Virus record (IMG/VR): IMGVR_UViG_3300029928_000001
Location: 64,001 to 128,000 of that record
Direction: 5' to 3' (one strand)
Origin: a virus
Taxonomy: Duplodnaviria; Caudoviricetes
Length of the DNA stretch: 64,000 nt
Shown here: piece after piece, positions 1 to 60,378 of the stretch
Layout: each line of letters starts with the position of its first letter
Numbering within the stretch: position 1 is the first letter of the stretch
The notes under the pieces: generated by a model
The model's input: only the letters and a program-made list of their open reading frames with translations
Told to the model about the DNA's origin: nothing
Database searches by the model: none
Made by a program: the position numbers and the translations under genes

Positions 1-774
1 CAAACAAACAATATTGAACGACGTATTCGAGAACATAAAAGTAATGCTTTTAATAGTAAAAGCGTAAATTATAATAATATTATTCATAAAGCTTTTAGAA
101 AATATGGATATGAAAATTTTTCAATTGATATATTAGAAACTTTAGAAAATGCTAGTCGAGAAGAAGTAAATGATAGAGAAATTTATTGGATAAAAGAAAA
201 GCATAGTTTAATTTCAGAAAATGGATATAATGTATTAGAAGGTGGCCGAAATGGATACCAAAAATCTTTACTAAATAAAGAACAAATTACTGACATTAAA
301 CGAATGATCAAAGAAAAAACTCCATATGATGATATTTGTAAAAAATATAGTGTTTCTAAAACTTTTATTTCAGATATTAACAATGGAAGATTTTTTTATG
401 ATGAGCAAGAAATTTATCCATTATGTTCATATAGATTAGACAAGGATTTATATGATTTATTAATTGAAGATTTATAGAAACCTATTTTAACCTTTTCCCA
501 ATTAGCTGATAAATATTCAATAGCACAATCTACTGTTAAAAAATTTAACTATGGAACTTTACGTCATGGAGAATTTTACAAAGGAGAATATCCTATTAGA
601 AAAATTACTCCACAAGATTATAAGGCTGAATTGATTATTGATTATTTATTAAATACTGATTATACAAAAAAAGAAATAATTCAATTGGTTGGAACTTCTG
701 ATGAAACAATAAGAAAAATTAATTTAGGAATTAGACATCATCATGAAGATTTAACTTATCCATTAAGATAGTAA
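1..774 (+). CDS. GIY-YIG-family homing endonuclease, 5' truncated, encoded inside the dnaE group I intron
   Basis: Frame 1 reads QTNNIERRIREH...IHKAFRKYGYENF...E.YWI....NGYN..GG, the region following the GIY-YIG motif, then HTH-like repeats. In-frame TAG at 475-477 and 769-771; TAA at 772-774. Not in the ORF track. Confidence 0.85.
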
Positions 775-939
775 GTTTGTAGAGACTATCCCGGGTTAGA
801 CTGGGAGTAGGGCTACTATTGATACGTAGCTAGGTTTTAGGAAACGAAGCCTATGAAAACCGAAACGGTATGATTATTTATTTTAAAACAAATAATTAAA
901 AGATAGTCCAATTCTAATAGAAATATTAGAGAAAAATTG
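1..939 (+). ncRNA. Group I intron (3' part) interrupting dnaE
   Basis: P7 elements TGTAGAGACTA (~778-788) and AAGATAGTCC (~900-909), then a P9 hairpin and terminal G939. The exon resumes (T)AT GCT TTT TCA AAA AAT CAT = YAFSKNH, the DnaE 'YAFNKSH' motif. Confidence 0.85.
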
Positions 940-2384
940 ATGCTTTTTCAAAAAATCATTCACTTCCGTATTCTTTCGTCGGTGTCCAAACGATCGTTTT
1001 AGCCACACAATTTAATCCTATCTATTGGAATACAGCTTGTTTAATTGTCAATAGCGGTTCATTAGAAAATAATGAACAGCTTGAAGAAGTGGATATATTT
1101 GAAGGTGAAGATGATATAGCTGATGGTGTTATTTATATAGATGCGCCAGATGGACAAACTAAATTAAGAAAAGTTTCTACAGACTATGGTAAAGTGGCAA
1201 AAGCTTTAGGTGATGTAATTAATGCAGGTATTAAAGTTAGTTTAGTTGATATTAATAAATCTAGTTTTGGTTTTAAACCCGATGTAGAAAATAATCAAAT
1301 TATGTTTGGCTTAAAAGGTTTATTAAATGTAAGTGATGAAATTATTGCTGATATTATTAAAAATAGACCTTATAAATCTCCAAAAGATTTTTTAAGAAAA
1401 GTAAAGCCAAAAAAACAATCTATGATTTCTTTAATTAAGAGTGGAGCTTTTGACTCAATGATGGAGCGTAGGGCTTGTATGGTTTGGTATATTTGGGAAA
1501 CTTGTGATAAGAAAAGTAATTTAAACTTACAAAATATGGCAAGTTTAATTAAGTTTAATCTTTTACCAGAACAAACTGAAGAACAAACAATGGCTCGTCG
1601 TGTTTATGAATTTAATAGATATCTAAAAGCTTGTTGTAAAATTAATGGAACAACTAATTATATTATGAACGAGCGTACTATTGATTTTCTTGCTGAATTA
1701 GATAAGGTTAATTTAATACAAGAGGATAATACATTAAATGCTAAAATATGGGATAAGGTTTATCAAAAATGGATGGATGTATTCAGAATATGGATTAGCG
1801 AAAATAAACAACAGATTTTAGATAATTTAAACACTTTAATTTTTGAACAAGATTGGGAGAAGTATGGCGATGAAGGAAATATATCTCGCTGGGAGATGAA
1901 AACTATGTGTTTCTATTATCATGATCATGAGTTAAAAAATCTTCAAGAAAATTATTATGGAATAAAAGATTTCTTTAAACTTTCTTCAGAGCCAATAGTA
2001 GAAAAGACTTTTGAGCGTGGTGGAAAAACTATTCCATTATATAAACTTGATAAAATAGCAGGAACTTGTATTTCTAAAAATAAAAGTAAAGCAACTGTTA
2101 CTTTATTAACCACTACTGGTGTTGTAAATGTTAAATTTAGAAAAGAATATTTTTCTTTATTTGATAAACGTATTTCAGAAAAACAGCCAGATGGAACAAA
2201 AAAAGTTAAAGAAAATAGTTGGTTTAATCGTGGAGAAATGATTATTGTTAATGGCATGCGCTCTGGTGATGATTTTATTGTGAAAAAATATGCAAGTACA
2301 GTTGGACATCAATTAATGAAAATTACAAGTATTGATAATGAAGGTCGAATTACTGTAACGAGTGAAAGATATGAGGTACAATAA
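940..2384 (+). CDS. dnaE: DNA polymerase III alpha subunit, 3' exon
   Basis: AFSKNHSLPYSF...NPIYWNTACL, DINKS...IMFGLKGL, LIKSGAFD and a C-terminal OB-fold-like region. In frame with track ORF 1089..2384. Confidence 0.9.
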
Positions 2385-2740
2385 TGAAAATGATAATTGT
2401 AATGCGTAAAGATTTAGGAATGCGCAAAGGTAAAATGTGTGCGCAAGCTGGTCATGCGGTTCTTGGGGCAATGACTACTGCGCTTGATATGTTTGAAAAA
2501 GAAAAATATGCTAATTGGTATAAAAATAACTTACAAACTAAAATTTGTTTAGGAGTAGATTCTGAACAAGAGCTTTTAGATATTTATGAAGCAGGATTAG
2601 AACAAGGTTATATTGTTTATTTAGTAGAAGACTACGGTTTAACTGAATTCCATCAGCAACATACATATACTTGTCTTGCTTTTGAACCATTAGAAGATGA
2701 ACAAATTGACACAATTACAGGAGGGCTTTCTCTTTTATGA
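2384..2740 (+). CDS. pth2: Peptidyl-tRNA hydrolase, Pth2 type
   Basis: IVMRKDLGMRKGKMCAQAGHA, D.GLTE and IDTITG.L.LL motifs. Confidence 0.9.
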   Translation: MKMIIVMRKDLGMRKGKMCAQAGHAVLGAMTTALDMFEKEKYANWYKNNLQTKICLGVDSEQELLDIYEAGLEQGYIVYLVEDYGLTEFHQQHTYTCLAFEPLEDEQIDTITGGLSLL

Positions 2741-3285
2741 GTTATAAAATTATTGCGCTAATCGGTAAAAGTGGCGCAGGCAAAGACCGCATGCTTAAAG
2801 AATTGATTAAATCAAATAAAAATTTCCATGAAATTATTAGTTGCACTTCTCGCCCTTCTAGAGAGAACGAAATTGATGGTGTAAATTATCATTTTCTTTC
2901 TAACGATGAATTTGCTAATGAATTATTAGAAGATGCTTTTATGGAAGCTACTGTTTTCAATAATTGGGCTTATGGAACACGGTTCCAAGACTTAGACGAA
3001 GAAAAAATTAATATTGGAGTGTTTAATCCCGATGGCATTTATAATTTATTAGAACATAAAAATATTGATTTAAAAGTATATTATATTACTGTTTCTGATA
3101 AAGAACGACTAATAAGGCAATTAAAAAGAGAAAAAGAACCAAATATTGAAGAAATTATACGACGCTATGGAACTGATAAAATAGATTTTTTAGATTTAGA
3201 CTTCGATTATGTGGAACTAACAAATGAGACGCCTCAAGAATTTTTTGTTGCCATTGACCGCATACTCGAGGACAGTTTTAATTAA
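2737..3285 (+). CDS. gmk: Guanylate kinase-like protein
   Basis: P-loop GKSGAGKD, TSRPSRENEIDGVNYHF, YGT. Confidence 0.88.
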   Translation: MSYKIIALIGKSGAGKDRMLKELIKSNKNFHEIISCTSRPSRENEIDGVNYHFLSNDEFANELLEDAFMEATVFNNWAYGTRFQDLDEEKINIGVFNPDGIYNLLEHKNIDLKVYYITVSDKERLIRQLKREKEPNIEEIIRRYGTDKIDFLDLDFDYVELTNETPQEFFVAIDRILEDSFN

Positions 3286-3313
3286 TTTAGTATAAAGATT
3301 TTTCATATATATA
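3270..3313 (+). promoter_or_regulatory. Tripartite phage promoter-like motif upstream of nrdD
   Basis: GGACA-N7-TTAA-N18-CATATAT; the same spacing recurs at six other gene starts. Confidence 0.6.
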
Positions 3314-3347
3314 TGTTAATACCCAAAATATAGAATGGAGGAAATTT

Positions 3348-4572
3348 ATGCTATATATACAGAAACGAGATAATACTTTAGAACCTTTTAATAAAGATAA
3401 AATTATCACAGCAATAAATAAAGCTTTTTTAGAAGTAGATAAAGTATTATATGAAACGGATACAGCAAATGATATTGCTGATGAAATAGAACAATATTAT
3501 TTAGATAATCCAAAAGAAGAATTAACAGTAGAAGGAATACAAGATTTAATCGAAGACGCTCTTATGCGCTCAGAGCGAAAAGATGTAGCGCGCGCATATA
3601 TTCGTTTTAGATATAAGAAAGAATTGGTTAGACAATCTAATACAACTGACCAATCTATTAAAGAGTTACTTGAAGGTGATAGTGACTATTGGAATAATGA
3701 AAATTCTAATAAAAACGCCAAAAGAACAACAGTTCAGAGAGATTATATGGCTGGCATTGTTAGTACAGATATAACTCGAAGATTTTTATTAGATGCTGAT
3801 ATAGTAAAAGCACACGACGAAGGGATTATTCATTTTCATGATGCTGATTATTTTGCGCAAAATGCTTTACATAATTGTGAACTTATTAATCTTGAAGATA
3901 TGCTTCAAAATGGAACTGTTGTTAATGGAGTTATGATTGAAAAACCACATCGTCTTTTAACAGCTACAACTATTGCGACTCAAATAATTGCGGCAGTTAC
4001 CTCATCTTCTTATGGCGGCGCTACTATCTCTTTAACTCATCTCGCTCCCTTTGTAAGAGAAAGTAAGAAAAGGTATATAGAGAAATATAAAAAGAGAGGC
4101 CTTTCTAAACAAGATTATGAACAATATGCTATGGAAGATACTTTAAAAGAAATTTCTGACTCTGTTCAAACCTTTAATTATCAAACTAATTCAATGACTA
4201 ATACAAATGGACAAGCACCTTTTTTATCAGTTTATATGTATTTAGGTGAAACGAAAGAGTATAAAGAAGAATTAGCATTATTAATTGAAGAATTTTTAAA
4301 ACAAAGAATTCAAGGCTTTAAAAATGAAAAAGGAGTTTATATCACTCCTGCTTTTCCTAAATTACTTTATGTTCTTGAAAAAGACAATATCCATAAAGAT
4401 ACTAAATATTGGTATTTAACTGAATTGGCAGCTAAATGTACAGCAAAACGTATGGTTCCAGATTATATTTCTGAAAAAGTAATGCTTAAGCTGAAGGGTG
4501 ATGTATACCCATGTATGGGGTGTAGAAGTTTCTTAACCCCTGATCCAGAGAACCATAAGTATTATGGACGCT
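3348..4572 (+). CDS. nrdD: Anaerobic ribonucleotide reductase, exon 1 (includes ATP cone)
   Basis: ATP cone IQKRD...FNKDKI, AHDEGIIHFHD, HNC, GQAPF, FPKL, CMGCRSFL. The exon ends at ...YYGR-T. Confidence 0.93.
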
Positions 4573-4899
4573 TAATTACACCTAAAATTAGGGCGTCATT
4601 AAACGAAGTGAACGCGTGATAAAGCGGTGTGAAATTAAAATAAAAATTTTGCTAACGGTGAACTCCCTATGGGACAATACCGTGCCAAGCCTAATAAATA
4701 TCTTATTAGGAAGGTGTAACGACTATGGGTGATGAATGTAACCCAGTAGGATGGATTTTATCACCATCCGAAGCGCTTCGCTATTAATTTTGGACTAATC
4801 GTTTTAACCAATGAAAAAGAATAGCAACAAGAAGTTCAAAAGTTCTTAAAATTAATAGAAGAGATAGTCTAAATTATATAGTAATATATAAAACAATTG
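4573..4899 (+). ncRNA. Group I intron 1 of nrdD (327 nt, no intact ORF)
   Basis: P1 pairs GACGCU with GGCGUC, giving a U:G at the splice site. P7 is AACGACTA / GATAGTC. Terminal G4899. Splicing restores GR-F-NQGVV. Confidence 0.9.
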
Positions 4900-5501
4900 T
4901 TAACCAAGGTGTAGTGACAATTTCATTGGCTGATGTAGCTTTTTCTTCAAAAGGTGATTTTGATAAATTTTGGAAATTATTTGATGAGCGTCTTGAGTTA
5001 TGTCATAGAGCACTTCAAGCACGACATGAACGTTTAAGCCATGCTAATGCTGATGTATCACCAATACTTTGGAGATATGGAGCTTTAGCTCGTTTACCGC
5101 AAGGAGCTAGTATTCATGAATTATTACATAACAATTATTCAACTTTATCTCTTGGATATGCTGCTTTATATGAATGTGTAAAATATATGACTGGAGAAAG
5201 TCATACTAAAGGCGGAAAAGAATTTGGCTTAGCAGTGATGAAAAAGTTAAATGACAAATGTGCTGAATGGCGAGAAGCTGAAAATATTAGTTATAGTGTT
5301 TATGGTTCTCCTATTGAAAGCACTACTTATAAATTTGCTAAATGTCTAAAAAATAGATTTGGTAAAGATATATTTATTGAACTTGATGGAAAGGATCGAG
5401 ACTACATAACCAATAGTTACCACGTACCTGTATTTGAAGAAATAGATGCTTTTACTAAGTTAGAATTTGAAGCAGAATTTCAAGAATTAAGTCCAGGTGG
5501 T
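4900..5501 (+). CDS. nrdD: NrdD exon 2
   Basis: FNQGVVTISL...SLGYAALYE...YGSPIESTTYKF...YITNSYHV...LSPGG. Confidence 0.92.
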
Positions 5502-6497
5502 TAAATTTCAATATAACTTAAAATAGCCACCTTGAAACTGTGTGAACGTAAGAAAAAACGGTGTTTAGATTTATATAAGTCTAAGCTAACGGGGGACACT
5601 TAATTGGAAATCCCGTGCCAAGCTTTATTATTTTATTTAATAAAGAAGGTGTACAGACTAATTGTACTGGTGATTTTATCACATCAGGAAGCGCACAGCT
5701 AATGAAGCGGAGGTATCCCGCTATTAGAAGATATAGTCGAAAGGAAAAAATATGTATAATTGTGAAATTTGTGGAAGAACAGTAAATAAAAAAATCCGTT
5801 TAGGCGGATATACTTTATGCTCTAAGCATATGCATCAGTTACATTCTCATGGAAAATTCTTAGATAATTGTCCTAGAACCCAAAATGATTTAAATGAATA
5901 TAGAATAGAACAGGACATTGCTTATGGCGGGTTATATGATGGTGTTACCTCAGAGAAAATTGATGAATTTATAATTGACTCTGAAGATTTACCAAAAGTG
6001 AAATATCATAAATGGAGATTTAGCCATGGACATATAGTAACCGGCTTACCCGCACAAAAAACCCAGCGAGAATTGAGTTGGGTTATTTTGGGGCTTGATA
6101 ATCGTGTTGAAAAAGACATTGTCATAGACCATATAAATTGTAACCCTAAAGACAATCGCAAGCAAAATTTAAGAATTTGCAAACAAAGTGAAAACGTTCA
6201 AAATAAATCCTTCATGAGTAATAATACCTCTAATTTTATCGGAGTATCATACCGAAAAGATAGAAATAGATACGATCCTGAAATTAGAAAAAATTCTATT
6301 CGTTGCCATTTAGGATATACTAAAACGCTCGAAGAGGCGGTTTATAAAAGATATTATGCGGAGCAACTTGTTTTCGGAGAGTTTGCAAATCAAGCTGAAC
6401 AAAATAAAAAACAAAAATTTACTGAAAATCTTCCAATAGAAACTAAAGAACGATTACAGGCTATTGTTAAAGAAAAATTACAAGCAAAAAACCTTTG
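5502..6497 (+). ncRNA. Group I intron 2 of nrdD, carrying an HNH endonuclease ORF
   Basis: P1 pairs AGGUGGU with GCCACCU. Core is homologous to intron 1 (GCTAACGG..., CCGTGCCAAGC, GAAGGTGTA.AGACTA, GATATAGTC). Terminal G6497. Splicing gives SPGG|AISYIE. Confidence 0.9.
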
Positions 6498-6504
6498 GCA
6501 ATAA
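5752..6504 (+). CDS. HNH homing endonuclease with C-terminal AP2-like domain
   Basis: IDHINCNPKDNRKQNLR, NNTSNFIGV, HLGY...EEA; N-terminal CxxC zinc motif; RBS GAAAGGAA. Confidence 0.9.
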   Translation: MYNCEICGRTVNKKIRLGGYTLCSKHMHQLHSHGKFLDNCPRTQNDLNEYRIEQDIAYGGLYDGVTSEKIDEFIIDSEDLPKVKYHKWRFSHGHIVTGLPAQKTQRELSWVILGLDNRVEKDIVIDHINCNPKDNRKQNLRICKQSENVQNKSFMSNNTSNFIGVSYRKDRNRYDPEIRKNSIRCHLGYTKTLEEAVYKRYYAEQLVFGEFANQAEQNKKQKFTENLPIETKERLQAIVKEKLQAKNLWQ

Positions 6505-6800
6505 GTTATATAGAAACTTCTAATTTACAAGGAAATATTGAAGCAGTCGAAACAGTAATACAATTTATTTATGAGCATATTATGTATGCTGAATTAAATA
6601 CTAAATCTGATTATTGTCAAGAGTGTGGTTATGACGGTGAAATTTTAATAGATGAAAATGTTGAATGGTATTGTCCTAATTGCGGAAATTGCAATCATGA
6701 AACATTAAATGTGGCTAGACGAACGTGTGGCTACATTGGTTCTCAGTTCTGGAATCACGGAAGAACGGAGGAAATTCGAGACAGAATAGTTCATTTATGA
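6498..6800 (+). CDS. nrdD: NrdD exon 3 (zinc site and glycyl-radical loop)
   Basis: CQECG, CPNCG, RRTCGYIG. Confidence 0.93.
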   Translation, partial: AISYIETSNLQGNIEAVETVIQFIYEHIMYAELNTKSDYCQECGYDGEILIDENVEWYCPNCGNCNHETLNVARRTCGYIGSQFWNHGRTEEIRDRIVHL

Positions 6801-7279
6801 GATACGCAGATTTAAAAATAAACGATACAGCTAATGGACCTGGAGTAAATGTTTCATTCTGGGTCCAAGGTTGTCCTCATCATTGTAAAAATTGTTTTAA
6901 TCCAGAAACTTGGAATTATAAAGCAGGAAAAGAATTTACAGCAGAAACATTAGAACAAATCAAACAAGCTATTTCTGCTAATGGTATTCAACGTAATTTA
7001 TCAATTCTTGGCGGTGAACCTCTTTGTGCAGAAAATTTATTTCTAACTGAGTTAGTAATTCGAGAAATAAAAAAAGATTTCCCACATATAAAAATTTATG
7101 TATGGACTGGATATATTTATGAAGAATTATTAAATAATAGCAATAAATCCTTAAAATATATTTTATCTACTATAGACACTTTAGTAGATGGTCCATATAT
7201 AGAATCACAAAGAGATATTACGCTTCCTATGCGCGGCTCGCGCAACCAAAGAATTATTGACTTAAAACAAAAAATATGA
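6797..7279 (+). CDS. nrdG: Anaerobic RNR activase (radical SAM)
   Basis: ATG overlaps the nrdD TGA. ANGPG, GCPHHCKNCFN, LGGEP, LVDGPY, RGSRNQR. Confidence 0.93.
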   Translation: MRYADLKINDTANGPGVNVSFWVQGCPHHCKNCFNPETWNYKAGKEFTAETLEQIKQAISANGIQRNLSILGGEPLCAENLFLTELVIREIKKDFPHIKIYVWTGYIYEELLNNSNKSLKYILSTIDTLVDGPYIESQRDITLPMRGSRNQRIIDLKQKI

Positions 7280-7285
7280 TATAAT
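7257..7285 (+). promoter_or_regulatory. SigmaA-type promoter
   Basis: TTGACT-17 bp-TATAAT with extended TG. Confidence 0.8.
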
Positions 7286-7308
7286 AAAATAAAAAAGGAA
7301 AGTGTCAA

Positions 7309-7683
7309 ATGAGTGAATTAAGTTTATATGAATTAAATAAAAATATTATGGAAAACGTTCCTAAGGAAGCAATTCCAACAGAAAAGCAATTAATAGAAGC
7401 AATTAATAAATATGATAATCACTCTAATTATTACATGCTTTTAAGCAATCAAATTAAATATTATACTGTTTTTGAACGAGTAGTTGAACATGGACCATTA
7501 AAAATAGATTGTTTAAATAATTTTGCACAAGAGGTAATTTTATGTTTACAAGATATGGGTGAAATTGTTGGTGTATCTGAAGAACCAGGAGCATTAGAAT
7601 TTTGGGTGAAAACAGAGAATGGTCCTGAGTGTTTTTATTTGTTTGATTATTCTCAAGGAATTGTTTATTTTAAAGGAGAATAA
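7309..7683 (+). CDS. Hypothetical phage protein
   Basis: RBS AAGGAAAG, 124 aa, tightly packed operon. Confidence 0.75.
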   Translation: MSELSLYELNKNIMENVPKEAIPTEKQLIEAINKYDNHSNYYMLLSNQIKYYTVFERVVEHGPLKIDCLNNFAQEVILCLQDMGEIVGVSEEPGALEFWVKTENGPECFYLFDYSQGIVYFKGE

Positions 7684-7686
7684 GAT

Positions 7687-7947
7687 ATGATTACTTGCGC
7701 AATTGATATGTTTGGCTTTGATCAAATAATTTATTATACAGATCAGTCAGGCGAAAAACATAAAATTAAAACAAATATGGATAATTTAGGAATTGATATT
7801 GCAAATGCTTGCCAAATTTATAATTGTTATACAGTTAAAATCTATGGTTCAAAAGCTTATGCAGATAAAAAAGTAATTCCGCAAATTTATAAATGCTTAG
7901 AAAATAATTATGATTTAAATAAAATAGATATTGAGGTGATTTTATAA
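7687..7947 (+). CDS. Hypothetical phage protein
   Basis: RBS AGGAG, 86 aa. Confidence 0.7.
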   Translation: MITCAIDMFGFDQIIYYTDQSGEKHKIKTNMDNLGIDIANACQIYNCYTVKIYGSKAYADKKVIPQIYKCLENNYDLNKIDIEVIL

Positions 7948-7948
7948 T

Positions 7949-8215
7949 ATGGCTAAATATTTAGTAAGTGTAGTAGAGACTTATAGAGTAGATAGTGAAG
8001 AAGAAGCAGTAAGATTAATCGAAGAAGCAAAACATAATAATAAATATGAATTAACAAAATATACTAATGAACACAAGGAAGTAAAGCAAAAAGGTGAAGT
8101 AGTTGATGAGTATCAAAAAGTAGCGTTAACAAAAATTGTTAATGACATCAAAGATCCTTACGTAGAAACTCAAATTGAATACTATAAACCAGGAGATAGA
8201 GAGGGAACATTTTAA
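7949..8215 (+). CDS. Hypothetical phage protein
   Basis: RBS GAGGTG, 88 aa. Confidence 0.75.
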   Translation: MAKYLVSVVETYRVDSEEEAVRLIEEAKHNNKYELTKYTNEHKEVKQKGEVVDEYQKVALTKIVNDIKDPYVETQIEYYKPGDREGTF

Positions 8216-8787
8216 TGGCAAAATTTGAAGTAATTGAAAAGTATAAAGACCAAAATATTAATTTGCCGGTGCGCGCCACTGCGCACGCCGCAGGTTATGA
8301 CTTTGAGGCTGCCGAAGATATTGTTATTCCTTCTTACTTTACTCTATGTAGTATAATGAATAATTATGGAACTAACTATGGAGATATTTTTTCAACGTTA
8401 ACCGGAGAGACAGGAACAGTACCAAAATATTTAGATGAAATGGCAGAATTAACTAAAGCATTACGTACTAAGCCTACTCTTATTCCTACTGGTATTAAAT
8501 GCCAACTTGCCGATGATGAATATTTAGAGCTTGTTGCAAGAAGCTCTATGCCGCTAAAGCATTGGCTTGTACTTGCTAATGGAGAAGGAATTGTGGATTC
8601 TGATTATTATAATAATCCAGATAATGAAGGTCATATTATGTTTCAATATATTAATTTTTCTCCTATGGATATTATTATTAAAAAAGGAGAGCGTATAGGG
8701 CAAGGGATCATCCGAAAATATTATATCACCGAAAATGATGCCCCAGGAGGCGAAAGAACTGGAGGTTTTGGATCCAGTGGCAAATAA
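8215..8787 (+). CDS. dut: Trimeric dUTPase
   Basis: AAGYDF, PTG, RSS, GIVDSDY, RIGQG and RTGGFGSSG (motifs 1-5). Confidence 0.93.
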   Translation: MAKFEVIEKYKDQNINLPVRATAHAAGYDFEAAEDIVIPSYFTLCSIMNNYGTNYGDIFSTLTGETGTVPKYLDEMAELTKALRTKPTLIPTGIKCQLADDEYLELVARSSMPLKHWLVLANGEGIVDSDYYNNPDNEGHIMFQYINFSPMDIIIKKGERIGQGIIRKYYITENDAPGGERTGGFGSSGK

Positions 8788-9268
8788 TATATTAGCATTA
8801 GATTAGAGTAGCCGTACGACAGGCTGGTCTGTTTATAGAGATAATTAGTTGTATACTTATGGACATTTTACTTTAACTGATGATAATGAAGGTATGAGGC
8901 TCCATAAGATAAGAGAAAAAGTAGCAGAATTAATTATGGATTATGATATTCAAGAATTAGTCTTTGAAGATATTTACATGGATGGGCAGCATATAAATAA
9001 TGTATCTACTTTTAAAAAACTTGCCGAAGTATTTGGTATTCTTTGGGAACTGGGTATCAGTTTAGAAATGCCGACGGAGGCGGTTCTGCCCGGAACGTGG
9101 CGGTCAACTTTAGGAATTAAAGGCCGAACTCGTTCGGAGCAAAAACGAGCTGCAAAAGAATACGTGTTAAATACATATAATAAAAAAGCTACAGAAGATG
9201 AATGTGATGCTATCTGTATTGGTGCGCATTATATTAAGAAAAAAAATTCAGAAATGAATTGGGAATAA
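8777..9268 (+). CDS. ruvC: RuvC-like Holliday junction resolvase (two in-frame TAG read as Gln)
   Basis: GTG start with RBS GGAGG. N-terminus ILALD[TAG]SSRTTGWSV is the catalytic ILALDQS..TGW motif; also FED and DECDAICIG. Confidence 0.87.
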
Positions 9269-9312: not shown

Positions 9313-9362
9313 GAAGAGTTCCAGTAAAGTAAAAATATTTGTTTCTAAAGGAGAAGAGTTTA

Positions 9363-9821
9363 ATGGTCGAATTTATCTTAAAATATTGGGTTGATTTTCT
9401 CTTTGGAATTATAGCAGCATGGGCAATAAGTAAATTAAAGCGCTTTCAAGAGCTTGAACAAAAACATCAAAAAGAAGTCCAAATAAAATTAGAGGAACAA
9501 ATCATGGATAAGGTAAAAAAAGAAATTGATGATTGCATCAATTAGTCAATTACTGGTGATAATGATTTAAAATCTGATATGGAAATTTTGAATATTAATA
9601 TAGATGGTATAAAAAAAGCAATTCTTTCAATGCAAGGCAAAGAATTTAGACAGACTTGTAAAATTTTATTAGAACCAAGTCATGTTATTACCACTGAAGA
9701 ATATAATTAGTGTATTCAAGACCATGATGCCTATAATGGAATTGGAGGCAATCATCAAGGAGATTTATTATTTGATGCAGTGCGTCGAAAATATAATGCT
9801 TCAGTATCTGATGATAAATAA
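9363..9821 (+). CDS. Membrane protein with N-terminal TM helix and coiled coil, possibly holin-like (two TAG read as Gln)
   Basis: RBS AAGGAG. MVEFILKYWVDFLFGIIAAWA...HDAYNGIGGNHQG. Open to TAA 9819-9821 only when TAG is read through. Confidence 0.7.
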
Positions 9822-9858
9822 AAAAAGGGAGAAAGTTAATAATAACTTTCTCCCTTTA
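9821..9858. terminator. Intrinsic terminator between convergent genes
   Basis: AAAGGGAGAAAGTTA-ataa-TAACTTTCTCCCTTT inverted repeat flanked by an A run. Confidence 0.75.
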
Positions 9859-46561: not shown

Positions 46562-49500
46562 TTAAGCAAAACGTGCATAAAAACCTTCTTGCTACTCCGC
46601 AGTATAGCCATATAAAGTTACACCATCATTTCGTAATTGTAATACTTTTTTGTTAGCAGCACCACCGCTAGCGCTAATGTCAGAACCAACAGCAACTAAA
46701 TATATTCCTTCTCCTGCTCCATAAATAGATACACCGTCATAATCTGCTTTAGTACCAGCTGAACCAATCTATAAACGATCATTTCCACTTTCATTTATAT
46801 TATTAATACCAATCAAAAAATACGCTGCATTGGCTGAACTAGCAGAAGGACGATAAATATTTGAAGCAATAAATAAAGTATTTCCACTAAACTTAAATTT
46901 ATCCCCTAAAGAAAATCTTCCATTACTGCCTAAAAATATTCCTTCTGACCCTCCATAAGTTCCTTTATTGTTATTCGAATAAATACTATTTGACGTTATC
47001 GTAAAACCACCAATTGTACCGCTCTTAGCTGTTATATTTCCTGAGCTATCAACTGAAAATGTAGGATCATATGAATTAGGTATATATATTTCACTACCAG
47101 TAATAGTACCACTAAAATTACCATTAACAGCAGTTAAAGTACCATCCCATGTTACCCAAAATTTAGAACCAATTTTAAAAGGATAACTATTTGAATCAGG
47201 ATTTGCATTTAATTCAATATTTCCAGAAGAAGAACGTAATTTAATTAATCCATCATCAAAATCTAGCATCATCCCTCTATTAAAAGTTTGATCATATAAT
47301 TCAGACGTAATAGTGGAATGAGTACCGTCAAATAATAATCTACCTTTTCCAGACTTGCCTATAAATGCTGTACCATCTTCCTTAAAAGCATAGCTCATAG
47401 CTCCTTCATGAAAACCATAAACACCAGTCTATTTAGTTATGTCACCAGAAGAATTTGTATTGCCCCATTCGCCTATGAGAACTCCAGAGAAACGATTCTA
47501 ACTATCTTTTTTACCTGCTGCAATACTTGTGGCAAGAATACTACCTTTATCATAATCAATAGTTAAACTTTTTCCATCCCATTCGCTCAAAGTTGAAGAA
47601 GGGTAAGTGTTTTGACAAACATAAACAGGCTATGACCATATTACTTCATTATTTAAAAAATATTGTCCGCCATATTTATCAGCATTTTCAACATAAAAAG
47701 CTAATGGTTTTAATACATTGTTATCAAAAGTTCCTACAAATTTTTCACGAGCCGTAGTATCTGTTGTTATATCAGGAGTCCATAATTCCCAAAAACCACC
47801 AGAAGCATCATTAGGCATTAATAAATCCATCGACCCATTATTATTTAAGTCAGTATTATAATGTAATCGCCAAGCTTCTTTGTAATAATCTACATAACCA
47901 GCAGTGCCATAAATTACTTCTTCGGCGCAATCAATAAAAGTAGGTTTATAAACCTTGCTATCATAACTAAAAGATTCTGCCGAAATAGGTACTGGTCGGC
48001 GCACAGTCAAATCAAAATTGCCCCAACCTTTAATTGTTACTTCTAAGATAAGAAATGTATCCATACTTATTTTAGAACTACTTTGTAAAATTACTTCATT
48101 TCGAGCGTTACTCTAATAATAAACTTCTTCAATTTTTAAATTATAATTATTTTCATCAGATGCAGTACCAGTGAAAGGTATAATAGATACATTAGTACCC
48201 GATTTTGCATACCATTTCCATTCTACTCTTGCTTTTGTATCTGTCTCATCGTTTAAATCAATTTCTTGATTCTATGAATCATAGAGCACTGCGCGCACAT
48301 TTAAAGTATCGCCACCATCTTTACTAATTAAACTATGACGATAAGCTGGATCAAAATAAATCCTTAATGTTGCATCTGTTCCAGTTGTACCTGCTTGCCC
48401 AAACCCTAAACGTTTAGATGTAAAATATTCATTACCATTTTTTACTATTTTACATTGAACAATATTATTTTGGGCAGATTGAGCATAAGATTCTTTTATA
48501 AAATAATACTATTCTGCATCAATAGCATATCCATTATTTTTATCTCCATGGCGAGTGATACTAATAATTTTTTCATTATCATCATAAATAACTATACTAT
48601 TATCAGTACATTTAAAAGTATAAATCATTCCAGTCTCATCGACCGACAAAGATGAGATATTTGTAGGGGCAGCAATAATTTTATTTTCATTGTATTTATA
48701 AGAATAGTTAATATTATTTACAATAATCATTGTAGATGTAGTATTAAAAGTCCAAGTAATACTTTCTGCTTCTGTCAATAAAGCAGCAGTATTATTTTTC
48801 TCTAATAACGCATCTTCTGCAGAAAACATTGCGACTAATTTATGCGCTTCTGTAGTACGATACTATTCTAATATTTTATTGCCAGGGTCATAAATATAAT
48901 AATTGCCATAAGAGCCATCAGTGCACCAAATATTTAATCCTGCAAGGAAATCTTTAGTAGCATCATTAACGACTTCTTGTTCATTGGTAAAAGTGATTAT
49001 ATTAGAAACAATATAATCAGTACCTTGTATAATAATTACTTTAATCTATTCATTTTCTTTTTTTGTATTTGGAATAAAAGAATATAAAAAAGAATTTTTA
49101 TTTTCTTCATTTACTCTTTTCCAATACACACCACAATATTCATCAGCGGCTGGAGAACCAAAAGCATATCTATACCAACGTATTTCATAATTTGTAATAT
49201 TTTCTGGCTACACGTTATAGCCTTTTCCTTCATGAAACCATCTTAATTGTATTGTTTTTTCATTAATTGCATCAGACTATTTAGAAGTATAAGTTCTTGT
49301 ATTATTAGTAAATAAAACCGCCGATTCTTCATCAAATTCACCAATATCATATCCTAAACAAATATAAGGATCTTTAACGAATAAATTAGGAATTAATAAA
49401 TTGCCAAATTCATCTTGATATGGTAATAATTCATTGTTTTTATTAATAAAAGTACCTGGTTTTTCATAAAAATATAACTCACCTTTTATTATAGTGCCTA

Positions 49501-50353
49501 AATCAGCAATATTAAATACCTGTTCCTACTAATAAAAACTATTATAATTAAATGGATCTCCATACATATCATTTGTCGATAATGATAAATCATAAGTTTT
49601 ATAAATACTATTATAATATAGTTGTTCTATTTCTGATTTTTGAATTTCTAAACTCTATTTATAAAAAGATTCAGATAATTCAATCTTTAATGTCTCTTTA
49701 ATATAAACATATAAATCAGACTATTCTTCAACAGCCGTTGACTATTTTAAAAATAACTCTTGTAATTCTGCTAATCGACTTTTTTTATCTACAGTAATAT
49801 CATTCGCAATGGTAATTCTTAAAAGAAGCCCATATTCTCCTTTTGCGCATTCCAATTCTGTAAGCCATGAACGAAATTGTGCTTGCAAACCTAATCTTGT
49901 ATATCCATTTAAAGGCTAATTAATTTCTTTAAAATTTTTTTGCCACAATAAAGTCATTTTTACATCTGCCGGATTATTTGCTACTAACCCAATAGTAGAT
50001 ATTGTTTTATCAGTAATTATATTTCCAGTTACATCAACTATTGTCTAAAAAGGAGTCTAAAAAACATATGGCTTATCATTATCAGCCACATATTTTCCAA
50101 TAATTATTTTCTATTGTGAATAATCTCCATTAGGTACAGTTACATATACAACATCATCAAGTTCATATGTTGTATCACTGGAATAAGCATAATAAGTAGC
50201 TGAACCATCTGATACTTCATATTTACCATTTAATGCATAATCAGTATTTATAATAGTAACAGTATCAGTGATATCATAAGAAATGCCTTTTAACCGTTCT
50301 GATATAATCTAATCAACTGACTAAAATAATATCTCAGCATAATCTTTTTGCAT
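46562..50353 (-). CDS. Tail spike/central-fibre-like protein, 1263 aa
   Basis: VYVTVPNGDYS, IAAGKK, FSGVLIG.W, GVYGFHEG..SYAFKEDGTAFIGKSG, SGTIGGF. Single frame with TAG read-through. Confidence 0.75.
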
Positions 50354-50427
50354 ACTTAGCTCTCCTTTCTCTCCATATTTCTATTTTATCATAAAATTTT
50401 AAACAAATCAAATAATCATATTAGTCC

Positions 50428-59315: not shown

Positions 59316-59344
59316 AGTTTAACAAAAAATTTTATAATTGTCAA
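59316..59344 (-). promoter_or_regulatory. SigmaA-type promoter inside the structural region
   Basis: TTGACA-17 bp-TAAACT with extended TG. Confidence 0.65.
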
Positions 59345-60363
59345 ATTTTAAGATTTTCTAACAAATTATTAATAACATTATCAATATGTTGATTAATTTG
59401 ATCTGTTGTATTTTCATCACCATTTAAAAATAATTCCTATATTTTTTCTTGAGCCTATTTAACATCAGTACTTTGTTGTATCTTTCTAAAAAAAGATTCT
59501 AATTCTTCTAAATAATTAATCAAAGTAGTAGCAGACATTAAATTTGCTGAATTTGTTTTTATCTAATTTAGTCCTACGTCTCCACCTTTAAAACCTTTTA
59601 CATTATCATATTTTAACTAATTTAAAAAGTATTCTCTCTAAAATTCTTCTGAAGAAATTGAATTTAACTAAGTGCCATATTTATTTATTGTTGCATCAAA
59701 AGCCTAATAAATCCATCCACGATTAAATAATTTAAAACTATAGGCACTTCGTCCTCTTTTTCCATTTCCTTCGTTAGGCTACCAAGCGTAAGCTCGTTCT
59801 TTTTTGCCATATTTAGATTCTATTTCTTTGTTAATAATATAATTAGTTTTTGAACGACCAGGATGACGAAATTTATTAATTACATCAAAGTGCTTCTTAA
59901 ATGCGTCTTCAGCTTTTGTATCATGTTTTAATTTATTTAATTTTTCTTTTGAAAGTACTCCAGGTAAACGTAAAGTTGTTTTGTCACGATAAACTAAATT
60001 CATTAATTCGCTTTCTGTTAAAGTATATATTTTTACTTCATTTAATTCACCGCTACGATAATAAATTTTATACTAAATTTCCTAATCTTTACCTAAAAAA
60101 TATGTTCTAACAGCCATAATTAATTCATAAGATTTTTTTAATTCCTCTTCTAATTTTTTATCAATAATAGCATTTTTATTTTTCGTCCTTTTATTAATAG
60201 AATAAGTATTAACGCAATATTCTAAAGTTTTCTTCTATAAAGCTAAAAGTTTTATTTTATTCTCGACAGTCGCATTAGCCCATTTTATTGTATCAAAAAC
60301 TACATTATTAGCTACTAAATCATATATTTCCTTTTTATCAGACTAATCTATATATTGCTCCAT
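59341..60363 (-). CDS. Hypothetical protein, 340 aa, TAG-rich
   Basis: ATG 60363 with RBS AGGTG, open to TGA 59341-59343 under code 15; GFKGGDV motif. Confidence 0.65.
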
Positions 60364-60378
60364 AGCTATCACCTATAA

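Follow-up and report, generated by a model that had tools for sequence, protein, structure and literature searches.

How can one phage genome fill one set of its genes with the triplet TAG and keep another set free of it? The question is raised by the stretch of DNA studied here (the window: 64,000 nucleotides, bases 64,001–128,000 of the 178,419-bp IMG/VR record IMGVR_UViG_3300029928_000001, 31% GC, rated 100% complete), in which replication and nucleotide-metabolism genes at positions 942–8787 (the interval) lie ahead of a long array of virion genes. The phage is called G000, and positions are those of the window unless marked as genome positions, window coordinates being genome coordinates minus 64,000. 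Our analyses make it quite probable that the interval is part of a dual-coded replication and nucleotide-metabolism block, in a phage that reassigns TAG to glutamine and undergoes a switch of code. This layout is one already described for other gut phages, and G000 is a further example of it in a different lineage.

TAG in replication genes and virion genes

The interval holds 12 open reading frames (ORFs) or exons that together count 2,373 codons, 87 of them CAA or CAG and none TAG, and that stop at TAA (eight) or TGA (four). The preliminary description of this DNA had said as much of the run from the dnaE exon to dut, and it was right. The missing TAG is restricted to the reading frame, since the other two frames of the same 12 ORFs contain 74 and 35 TAG triplets (109 in total). 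By contrast, the minus-strand virion block (genome 74–143.4 kb) has 245 TAGs in 21,604 codons, alongside 696 CAA and CAG, a TAG/(TAG+Gln) ratio of 0.26, in line with the earlier statement that TAG pervades the structural region. This ratio is not uniform across gene classes: Fisher's test of the interval against the virion block gives p = 2.3e-11 and, at the per-codon rate of that block, about 27 TAGs would be expected in the interval (P(0) = 2e-12). The absence of TAG from the interval is real and far beyond chance. Since none of its genes contains an in-frame TAG, they yield the same proteins whether TAG means stop or glutamine, and the claim that they translate under either code holds. GyrA/B, ligase, DnaB and DnaE of G000 have no TAG either.

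The genes concerned all lie on the plus strand, and their identities come from Pfam. They begin with the C-terminal part of DnaE, encoded by the 3' part of dnaE ('exon 2', 942–2384, TAA stop) and assigned by HHH_6, by its translation and by tblastn with the DnaE of G001, a complete relative of 188,323 bp with terminal repeats and mostly 45–65% amino-acid identity. They continue with the peptidyl-tRNA hydrolase Pth2 (2384–2740, TGA stop; Pfam PTH2, 3.9e-32; NCBIfam arch_pth2, 95 bits, above the cut-off), guanylate kinase (gmk, 2737–3285; Guanylate_kin) and nrdD, which is in three pieces collinear on the Pfam profile: 3348–4619 (ATP-cone and NRDD positions 1–275), 4914–5504 (positions 282–470) and 6495–6800 (positions 471–562, the glycyl-radical domain). 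An HNH endonuclease gene (5752–6504; HNH_3) lies between the second and third pieces. The activase gene nrdG (6725–7279), three small hypothetical ORFs (7309–7683, 7687–7947 and 7949–8215) and the dUTPase gene dut (8215–8787, TAA stop) complete the interval.

The virion genes, which occupy the minus strand from 9836 to 64000 and on to genome 143.4 kb, are incomplete unless TAG is decoded. When TAG is read as sense, the fragmented ORFs of this strand fuse into long genes, including those of a 2,524-aa and a 2,730-aa protein (ORF lists). PHROG matches identify the 2,730-aa protein as the tape measure protein, and further matches point to tail proteins, virion structural proteins and the portal. 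The tape measure protein carries 64 TAGs, and a 50% yield of full-length product would by our calculation need about 98.9% read-through per TAG, so that suppression in the late phase must be nearly complete.

The partition extends over the whole genome. The genome-wide counts took only TAGs inside regions aligned to orthologs, which removes artefacts of over-extended ORFs. Counted in this way, the replication block (plus strand, genome 10.5–72.3 kb) has 17 TAGs versus 405 Gln codons (ratio 0.04) and the block of small, early-type genes (the small-gene block; plus strand, genome 143.6–176.7 kb) has none versus 96 (0.00), whereas the virion block has 171 versus 501 (0.25); the differences from the virion block give p = 5e-23 and p = 1e-11, respectively. 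G001 shows the same partition, with ratios of 0.06 and 0.09 versus 0.29; a further genome, G002, is 99.7% identical to G001 and does not count as an independent replicate. In the distant relative phAss-1, TAG is absent from DnaE, GyrA/B and NrdD but occurs 110 times in the tape measure protein and eight times in one GIY-YIG gene. Among 80 IMG/VR relatives, 35 dereplicated recoded loci around a sigma-like gene could be compared, and in 34 of the 35 the share of TAG is higher on the late side (Wilcoxon p = 3e-10). Depletion maintained across some 50% protein divergence speaks for selection, not for recent acquisition. Eight relative loci look standard-code (L119, L127, L128, L132, L134, L138, L153 and L175), and the family seems to mix strongly recoded members with others that are recoded weakly or use the standard code. 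The sigma-like protein of these eight is 61–71% identical, and their late genes have 1–8 TAGs versus 105–141 Gln codons.

Ortholog alignment supports glutamine as the probable meaning of the reassigned codon. Opposite the TAGs of G000, G001 mostly has Gln (29) or TAG (26), over a Gln background of 2.8%, and TAGs fall on conserved Gln sites in PhoH, in NrdG of G001 and in the sigma-like protein.

Within the virion block the use of TAG is uneven. Its share of Gln codons varies from 0 to 0.67 among genes (chi-square p = 9e-7), the highest values being those of a 343-aa protein (12/18; 59341–60372, minus) and a 1,276-aa protein (24/48; 46562–50392, minus). Some probably abundant virion proteins are TAG-poor, with 0–1 TAG in genes of 259–555 aa, and Pfam was uninformative on the TAG-free genes of the block. 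Two ideas about where TAG is placed were discarded. One was a '5-prime amber gate', that is, an excess of TAG in the first 20 codons; ortholog-validated N-termini give 11.7 versus 11.1 TAGs per 1,000 codons (p = 0.81). The other was selection for particular TAG sites. Between G000 and G001, the synonymous-site conservation odds ratio is 4.2 for TAG, compared with 2.6–3.5 for four two-codon pairs and 1.8–11.3 for three codon-family pairs, which places TAG slightly above the two-codon pairs and well below AGY/TCN serine (11.3).

TAG also occurs in certain plus-strand genes. The preliminary description had TAG usage begin at ruvC, which is correct only downstream of the interval. There, the RuvC-like resolvase gene (8777–9268), whose GTG start at 8777 follows a GGAGG, contains sense TAGs at 8804–8806 and 8846–8848, the first of which is also TAG in G001 (the PHROG RuvC matches begin at residue 74–75 of the long ORF). 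The last plus-strand ORF (9339–9821) has two in-frame TAGs within the region aligned to its G001 ortholog, and at the convergent junction of the two strands lies a terminator-like 15-bp hairpin with T-runs (9824–9857). Upstream of the interval, by contrast, TAG is already used in an ORF for a GIY-YIG homing endonuclease (1–774, plus strand, beginning 119 nt before the window; Pfam GIY-YIG and HTH_7, PHROG homing endonuclease), with a sense TAG at 475–477 and a TAG-TAA tandem at 769–774. Because its translated frame runs past the TAG at 475–477 through two further helix-turn-helix (HTH)-like segments, this gene needs read-through of TAG.

In the replication block, the 17 TAGs within aligned regions are concentrated in four genes of the GIY-YIG type, in PhoH (four TAGs) and in RecJ (one, near the N-terminus and present in G001 too). 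A radical-SAM cassette of plus-strand genes across the contig ends is TAG-rich, with late-like usage, and a minus-strand tail module at genome 154–161 kb is TAG-rich as well. The separately translated GIY-YIG genes show late-like use of TAG, unlike the LAGLIDADG inteins, which are translated within DnaB and a second helicase and are TAG-free; both HNH genes are TAG-free too. In the PIN-PhoH gene (genome 20738–21994) the four sense TAGs cluster at codons 208–253, around the Walker A region, and its G001 ortholog has seven, again mostly clustered (codons 158–184).

Decoding equipment and TAG as a stop codon

The phage itself supplies the decoder tRNA(CUA) and a release factor 2 (RF2) that terminates at TAA and TGA, not at TAG. 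The tRNA gene with anticodon CUA is at genome 9907–9978 (tRNA(cta) in ARAGORN; 44.4 bits on the Rfam tRNA model), in an array that also holds, adjacent to the suppressor, a transfer-messenger RNA (tmRNA; 82 bits on the Rfam model). RF2 is full-length (398 bits on the prfB model TIGR00020, cut-off 370), has the SPF and GGQ motifs and is encoded by a single TAG-free ORF with a TAA stop; its gene, the first of the small-gene block, diverges from the one that opens the virion block. The tRNA(CUA), tmRNA and RF2 are common to G001, and a search of G000 for a synthetase of the glutaminyl-tRNA synthetase (GlnRS) type found none.

Between the two divergent genes, the intergenic region at genome 143438–143645 contains an extended -10 site of sigma-70 type that is close to consensus (TTGACA-17-TATACT, 11/12) and directed towards the sigma-like gene, and a second sigma-70-type site (10/12) directed towards RF2; the number of such sites is not above that in shuffled sequence. 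The sigma-like gene itself (genome 142388–143437, minus strand) is the first of the virion block, and database searches with its protein give more than 6,600 homologs (E <= 1e-5), many of them about 70% identical and on contigs of 160–193 kb. We do not retain the label 'sigma factor', which is a PHROG name only and for which NCBIfam and PDB sequence searches gave no match, and a conserved 'TAG-gated sigma' is a weak candidate, its TAG being absent from the standard-code-like relatives.

In the small-gene block, in-frame TAGs are found only at the 3' ends of ORFs (codons 113/115, 248/263, 121/124, 119/132, 69/103, 50/52 and 304/320). In three of these genes the G001 ortholog ends at most one residue from the TAG, which implies that TAG is a genuine stop in this block. 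About 7 of 46 ORFs end at TAG here versus 1–2 of 65 in the replication block (p = 0.008–0.03). That three genes end at TAG where their orthologs end argues that the host machinery probably reads TAG as a stop. G000 therefore has three usages of TAG (stop, avoided and glutamine), and the interval falls in the second of these tiers. Its genes can be read with either code, as suits functions that are required on both sides of a switch.

What host this might be is suggested by the relationships of the phage. G000 is a long-tailed gut phage, a distant relative of phAss-1. Its portal shares 41% identity with the phAss-1 portal and 26–29% with those of Enterococcus, Bacillus and Lactococcus phages, and a Shine-Dalgarno (SD)-like core precedes 58% of starts versus 6% of random positions. 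Portal relatives and SD usage indicate a Bacillota-type host, and G000 probably infects Bacillota. A tape measure protein of 2,730 aa, relatives of the portal in phages of Bacillota and the strong SD use ruled out a crAss-like phage. The interval was compared by megablast with 50,697 phage records and gave no match. A search for the host through RF2 retrieved a 74%-identical RF2 on one 4-kb contig binned with an Absicoccus metagenome-assembled genome; the other RF2 matches are distant (at most 55% identity) and spread over many phyla.

A proposed code switch and its rivals

A switch of code would proceed as follows. Infection would start in a standard-code cell whose release factor 1 (RF1) stops at TAG, and genes needed first or throughout, for replication and deoxynucleotide supply, would be held TAG-free by purifying selection. 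Translation of the TAG-bearing genes, namely those of virion proteins, RuvC, RecJ, PhoH and the GIY-YIG homing endonucleases, would become possible as suppressor tRNA builds up and RF1 loses the competition or is put out of action. TAG in late genes would be either a selected lock or tolerated drift. We infer the timing of expression and of the switch. The preliminary description had offered a similar interpretation, with a code-11 host expressing the early genes. It is upheld in part, by the genome-wide partition, its recurrence in relatives, the phage's own tRNA(CUA) and RF2 and the three early genes that stop at TAG where their orthologs end, but the genes that it treated as code-11 are better called dual-coded.

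Several observations weigh against this reading. The labels 'early' and 'late' come from the function and strand of the genes only. The gene for the suppressor tRNA immediately precedes the replication block and shares its strand, with no sequence sign of late expression. Single sense TAGs occur in nrdG (at a Gln position) and gmk of G001, so that depletion is quantitative and not absolute. The TAG-bearing GIY-YIG endonucleases, PhoH, RecJ and the radical-SAM cassette are located inside or beside the plus-strand blocks. The lock on late genes until the switch, also put forward earlier, would be only partial, 6 of the 38 late-block genes of at least 150 aa having no TAG. Finally, TAG in late genes acts as one more synonym for Gln, by its site conservation and by the lack of 5' enrichment, and both results are compatible with neutral accumulation no less than with a selected lock.

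Permissive drift takes up this last point: TAG would be a neutral synonym for Gln wherever the suppressor is present, replication genes would lack it for the sole reason that they are also translated without the suppressor, and late TAG would regulate nothing. We hold this to be a real possibility, though short of probable. The odds ratio for TAG lies inside the synonymous range, slightly above the two-codon pairs, validated N-termini carry no excess of TAG, the share of TAG in late genes ranges widely, and the family includes both standard-code-like and recoded members. Yet drift shares the temporal premise of the switch reading, translation of replication genes ahead of suppression or in its absence, and departs from that reading on adaptiveness only. 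Moreover, TAG in the GIY-YIG, RuvC and RecJ genes recurs over three diverged genomes (except in RuvC of phAss-1) and looks class-specific. If instead efficiency and not timing were the cause, read-through would always be partial and replication enzymes would avoid TAG since truncated products are harmful. The TAG-poor, probably abundant virion proteins speak for this, but a tape measure protein with 64 TAGs demands a read-through that is far from partial, and the true TAG stops of the small-gene block require a phase in which TAG terminates, which leaves this explanation improbable.

A replication and nucleotide module recently taken from a standard-code phage or host, in which TAG has not yet accumulated, would be in keeping with its richness in mobile elements (inteins, homing endonucleases, split genes). 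However, the same genes are TAG-poor in G001 at 45–64% identity and in phAss-1 at 26–41%, implying an old depletion that has been maintained, and out-of-frame TAGs are plentiful, so we give such an ancestry very little credence. Strand-specific mutation bias could be suspected since most TAG-rich genes occupy the minus strand and the GC skew changes sign at the border between the plus- and minus-strand blocks, but plus-strand genes with late-like use of TAG exist (radical-SAM cassette, RuvC, PhoH, GIY-YIG) and the TAG-free plus-strand genes have their 109 TAGs out of frame. A host that itself uses code 15 is argued against by the TAG stops, the phage-borne suppressor and RF2, and we know of no bacterium in which TAG encodes glutamine. 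Strand bias or a code-15 host thus seems hardly credible.

The dual-coded block with a code switch can also be set within a more elaborate scheme, a three-step translation programme, which we advance tentatively and with some doubt. An RF2-headed block with TAG stops, the TAG-avoiding replication block and the virion, recombination and homing genes with TAG as glutamine would be its steps, and the tRNA, RF2, tmRNA and Pth2 its kit. RF1 activity would be abolished in it and not just out-competed, given the roughly 99% read-through demanded by every one of the 64 TAGs of the tape measure protein, and tmRNA and Pth2 would clear ribosomes stalled on host messages that terminate at TAG. Pth2, of archaeal/eukaryotic type, lies between dnaE and gmk and is absent from G001 and G002. 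Together with the tmRNA, RF2 and suppressor tRNA of the phage, it might help with ribosome stalling during the code switch; our literature search found no paper linking these four.

Split genes and relation to known phages

Several genes of the replication block are interrupted. DnaE of G001 is a single ORF of 1,324 aa, whereas dnaE of G000 (genome 59973–63743 and window 942–2384) has an in-frame insertion and a further one of about 1.2 kb that contains the GIY-YIG gene. The in-frame insertion, of about 430 aa and probably an intein, is at genome 61448–62736. By tblastn and translation, homology to DnaE resumes at 942, in keeping with the start at 940 in the preliminary description, while the first possible start codon is at 1089; resumption without a start codon favours a putative removal, by splicing, of the insertion with the GIY-YIG gene. 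Rfam searches gave no group I intron, either at the gathering score (108 kb, made up of the window and some 44 kb upstream of it) or at E <= 1 (window 1–7000). The gaps in nrdD are at 4620–4913 (294 nt, without ORF) and 5505–6494 (about 990 nt, holding the HNH gene), and no Rfam intron model matches them. LAGLIDADG inteins are present in DnaB (genome 47206–49827) and in the helicase (genome 54234–55763), and a DNA methyltransferase gene looks split (genome 57889–58671 and 59091–59897).

That recoding is limited to genes for structure and lysis has been published, and so have replication genes in standard code, suppressor tRNAs, RF2 in TAG-recoded phages and a timed code switch (Yutin et al. 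2021, PMC7886860; Borges et al. 2021 preprint, 10.1101/2021.08.26.457843); the literature on code switches in mid-infection also includes Ivanova et al. 2014, as cited there. G000 resembles the phages of Yutin and Borges in its TAG-bearing virion genes, TAG-free replication machinery, suppressor tRNA and RF2 (the latter in some TAG-recoded phages), in a recoded codon in an early-gene endonuclease and, as the indirect signs suggest, perhaps in a standard-code host. It differs in being neither crAss-like nor Lak: its tail is long, its tape measure protein has 2,730 aa and its relatives infect Bacillota. In addition, its RF2 heads a block that still uses TAG as stop and its tmRNA adjoins the suppressor tRNA. 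A 'dual-coded early block' with a 'soft' switch is likewise already published (model: Yutin 2021; Borges 2021; Pfennig 2022). As in the study of dual-coded blocks, one replication-enriched block of G000 gives the same proteins under codes 11 and 15 and the change of code follows the switch of strand. In that study, however, predictions made under code 11 only were mostly short false positives, whereas in G000 three TAG-terminated early genes are verified by the C-termini of their orthologs.

TAG recoding in the phAss group has been published without an analysis of early and late partition (Babkin et al. 2023, PMC10607447). Like G000, phAss-1 (proposed Phassvirus group, GenBank OQ749652) has TAG-to-Gln reassignment, tRNA-Sup-CTA and recoded virion genes; unlike it, phAss-1 has 136 kb, 44.5% GC and no TAG in RuvC and PhoH. 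RF2 and tmRNA were looked for in phAss-1 and neither was found. A recoded intron endonuclease in an early gene, with a proposed delay of its synthesis, was described by Borges et al. 2021 (10.1101/2021.08.26.457843). The GIY-YIG gene of G000 would have its counterpart in phage T4 as well, with a GIY-YIG endonuclease in the intervening sequence of an early gene and its synthesis put off to late infection, as we propose here. In T4, by an account attributed to Gibb and Edgell in 2010, synthesis of the intron endonuclease I-TevI is reportedly delayed by RNA structure and late promoters; in G000 the delay would come from the in-frame TAG.

G000 offers a well-resolved case, in a family of long-tailed phages of Bacillota type, of a genome in which one codon has two meanings. 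Annotation of such genomes must go block by block, since under code 11 the late genes come out truncated and under code 15 some early genes come out too long. A family that is abundant in metagenomes and has recoded as well as apparently standard-code members would be a good system for studying how a code switch is executed, with suppressor tRNA, RF2, possible inactivation of RF1 and ribosome rescue as its elements, and it could show whether TAG is a selected translational lock or the product of drift.

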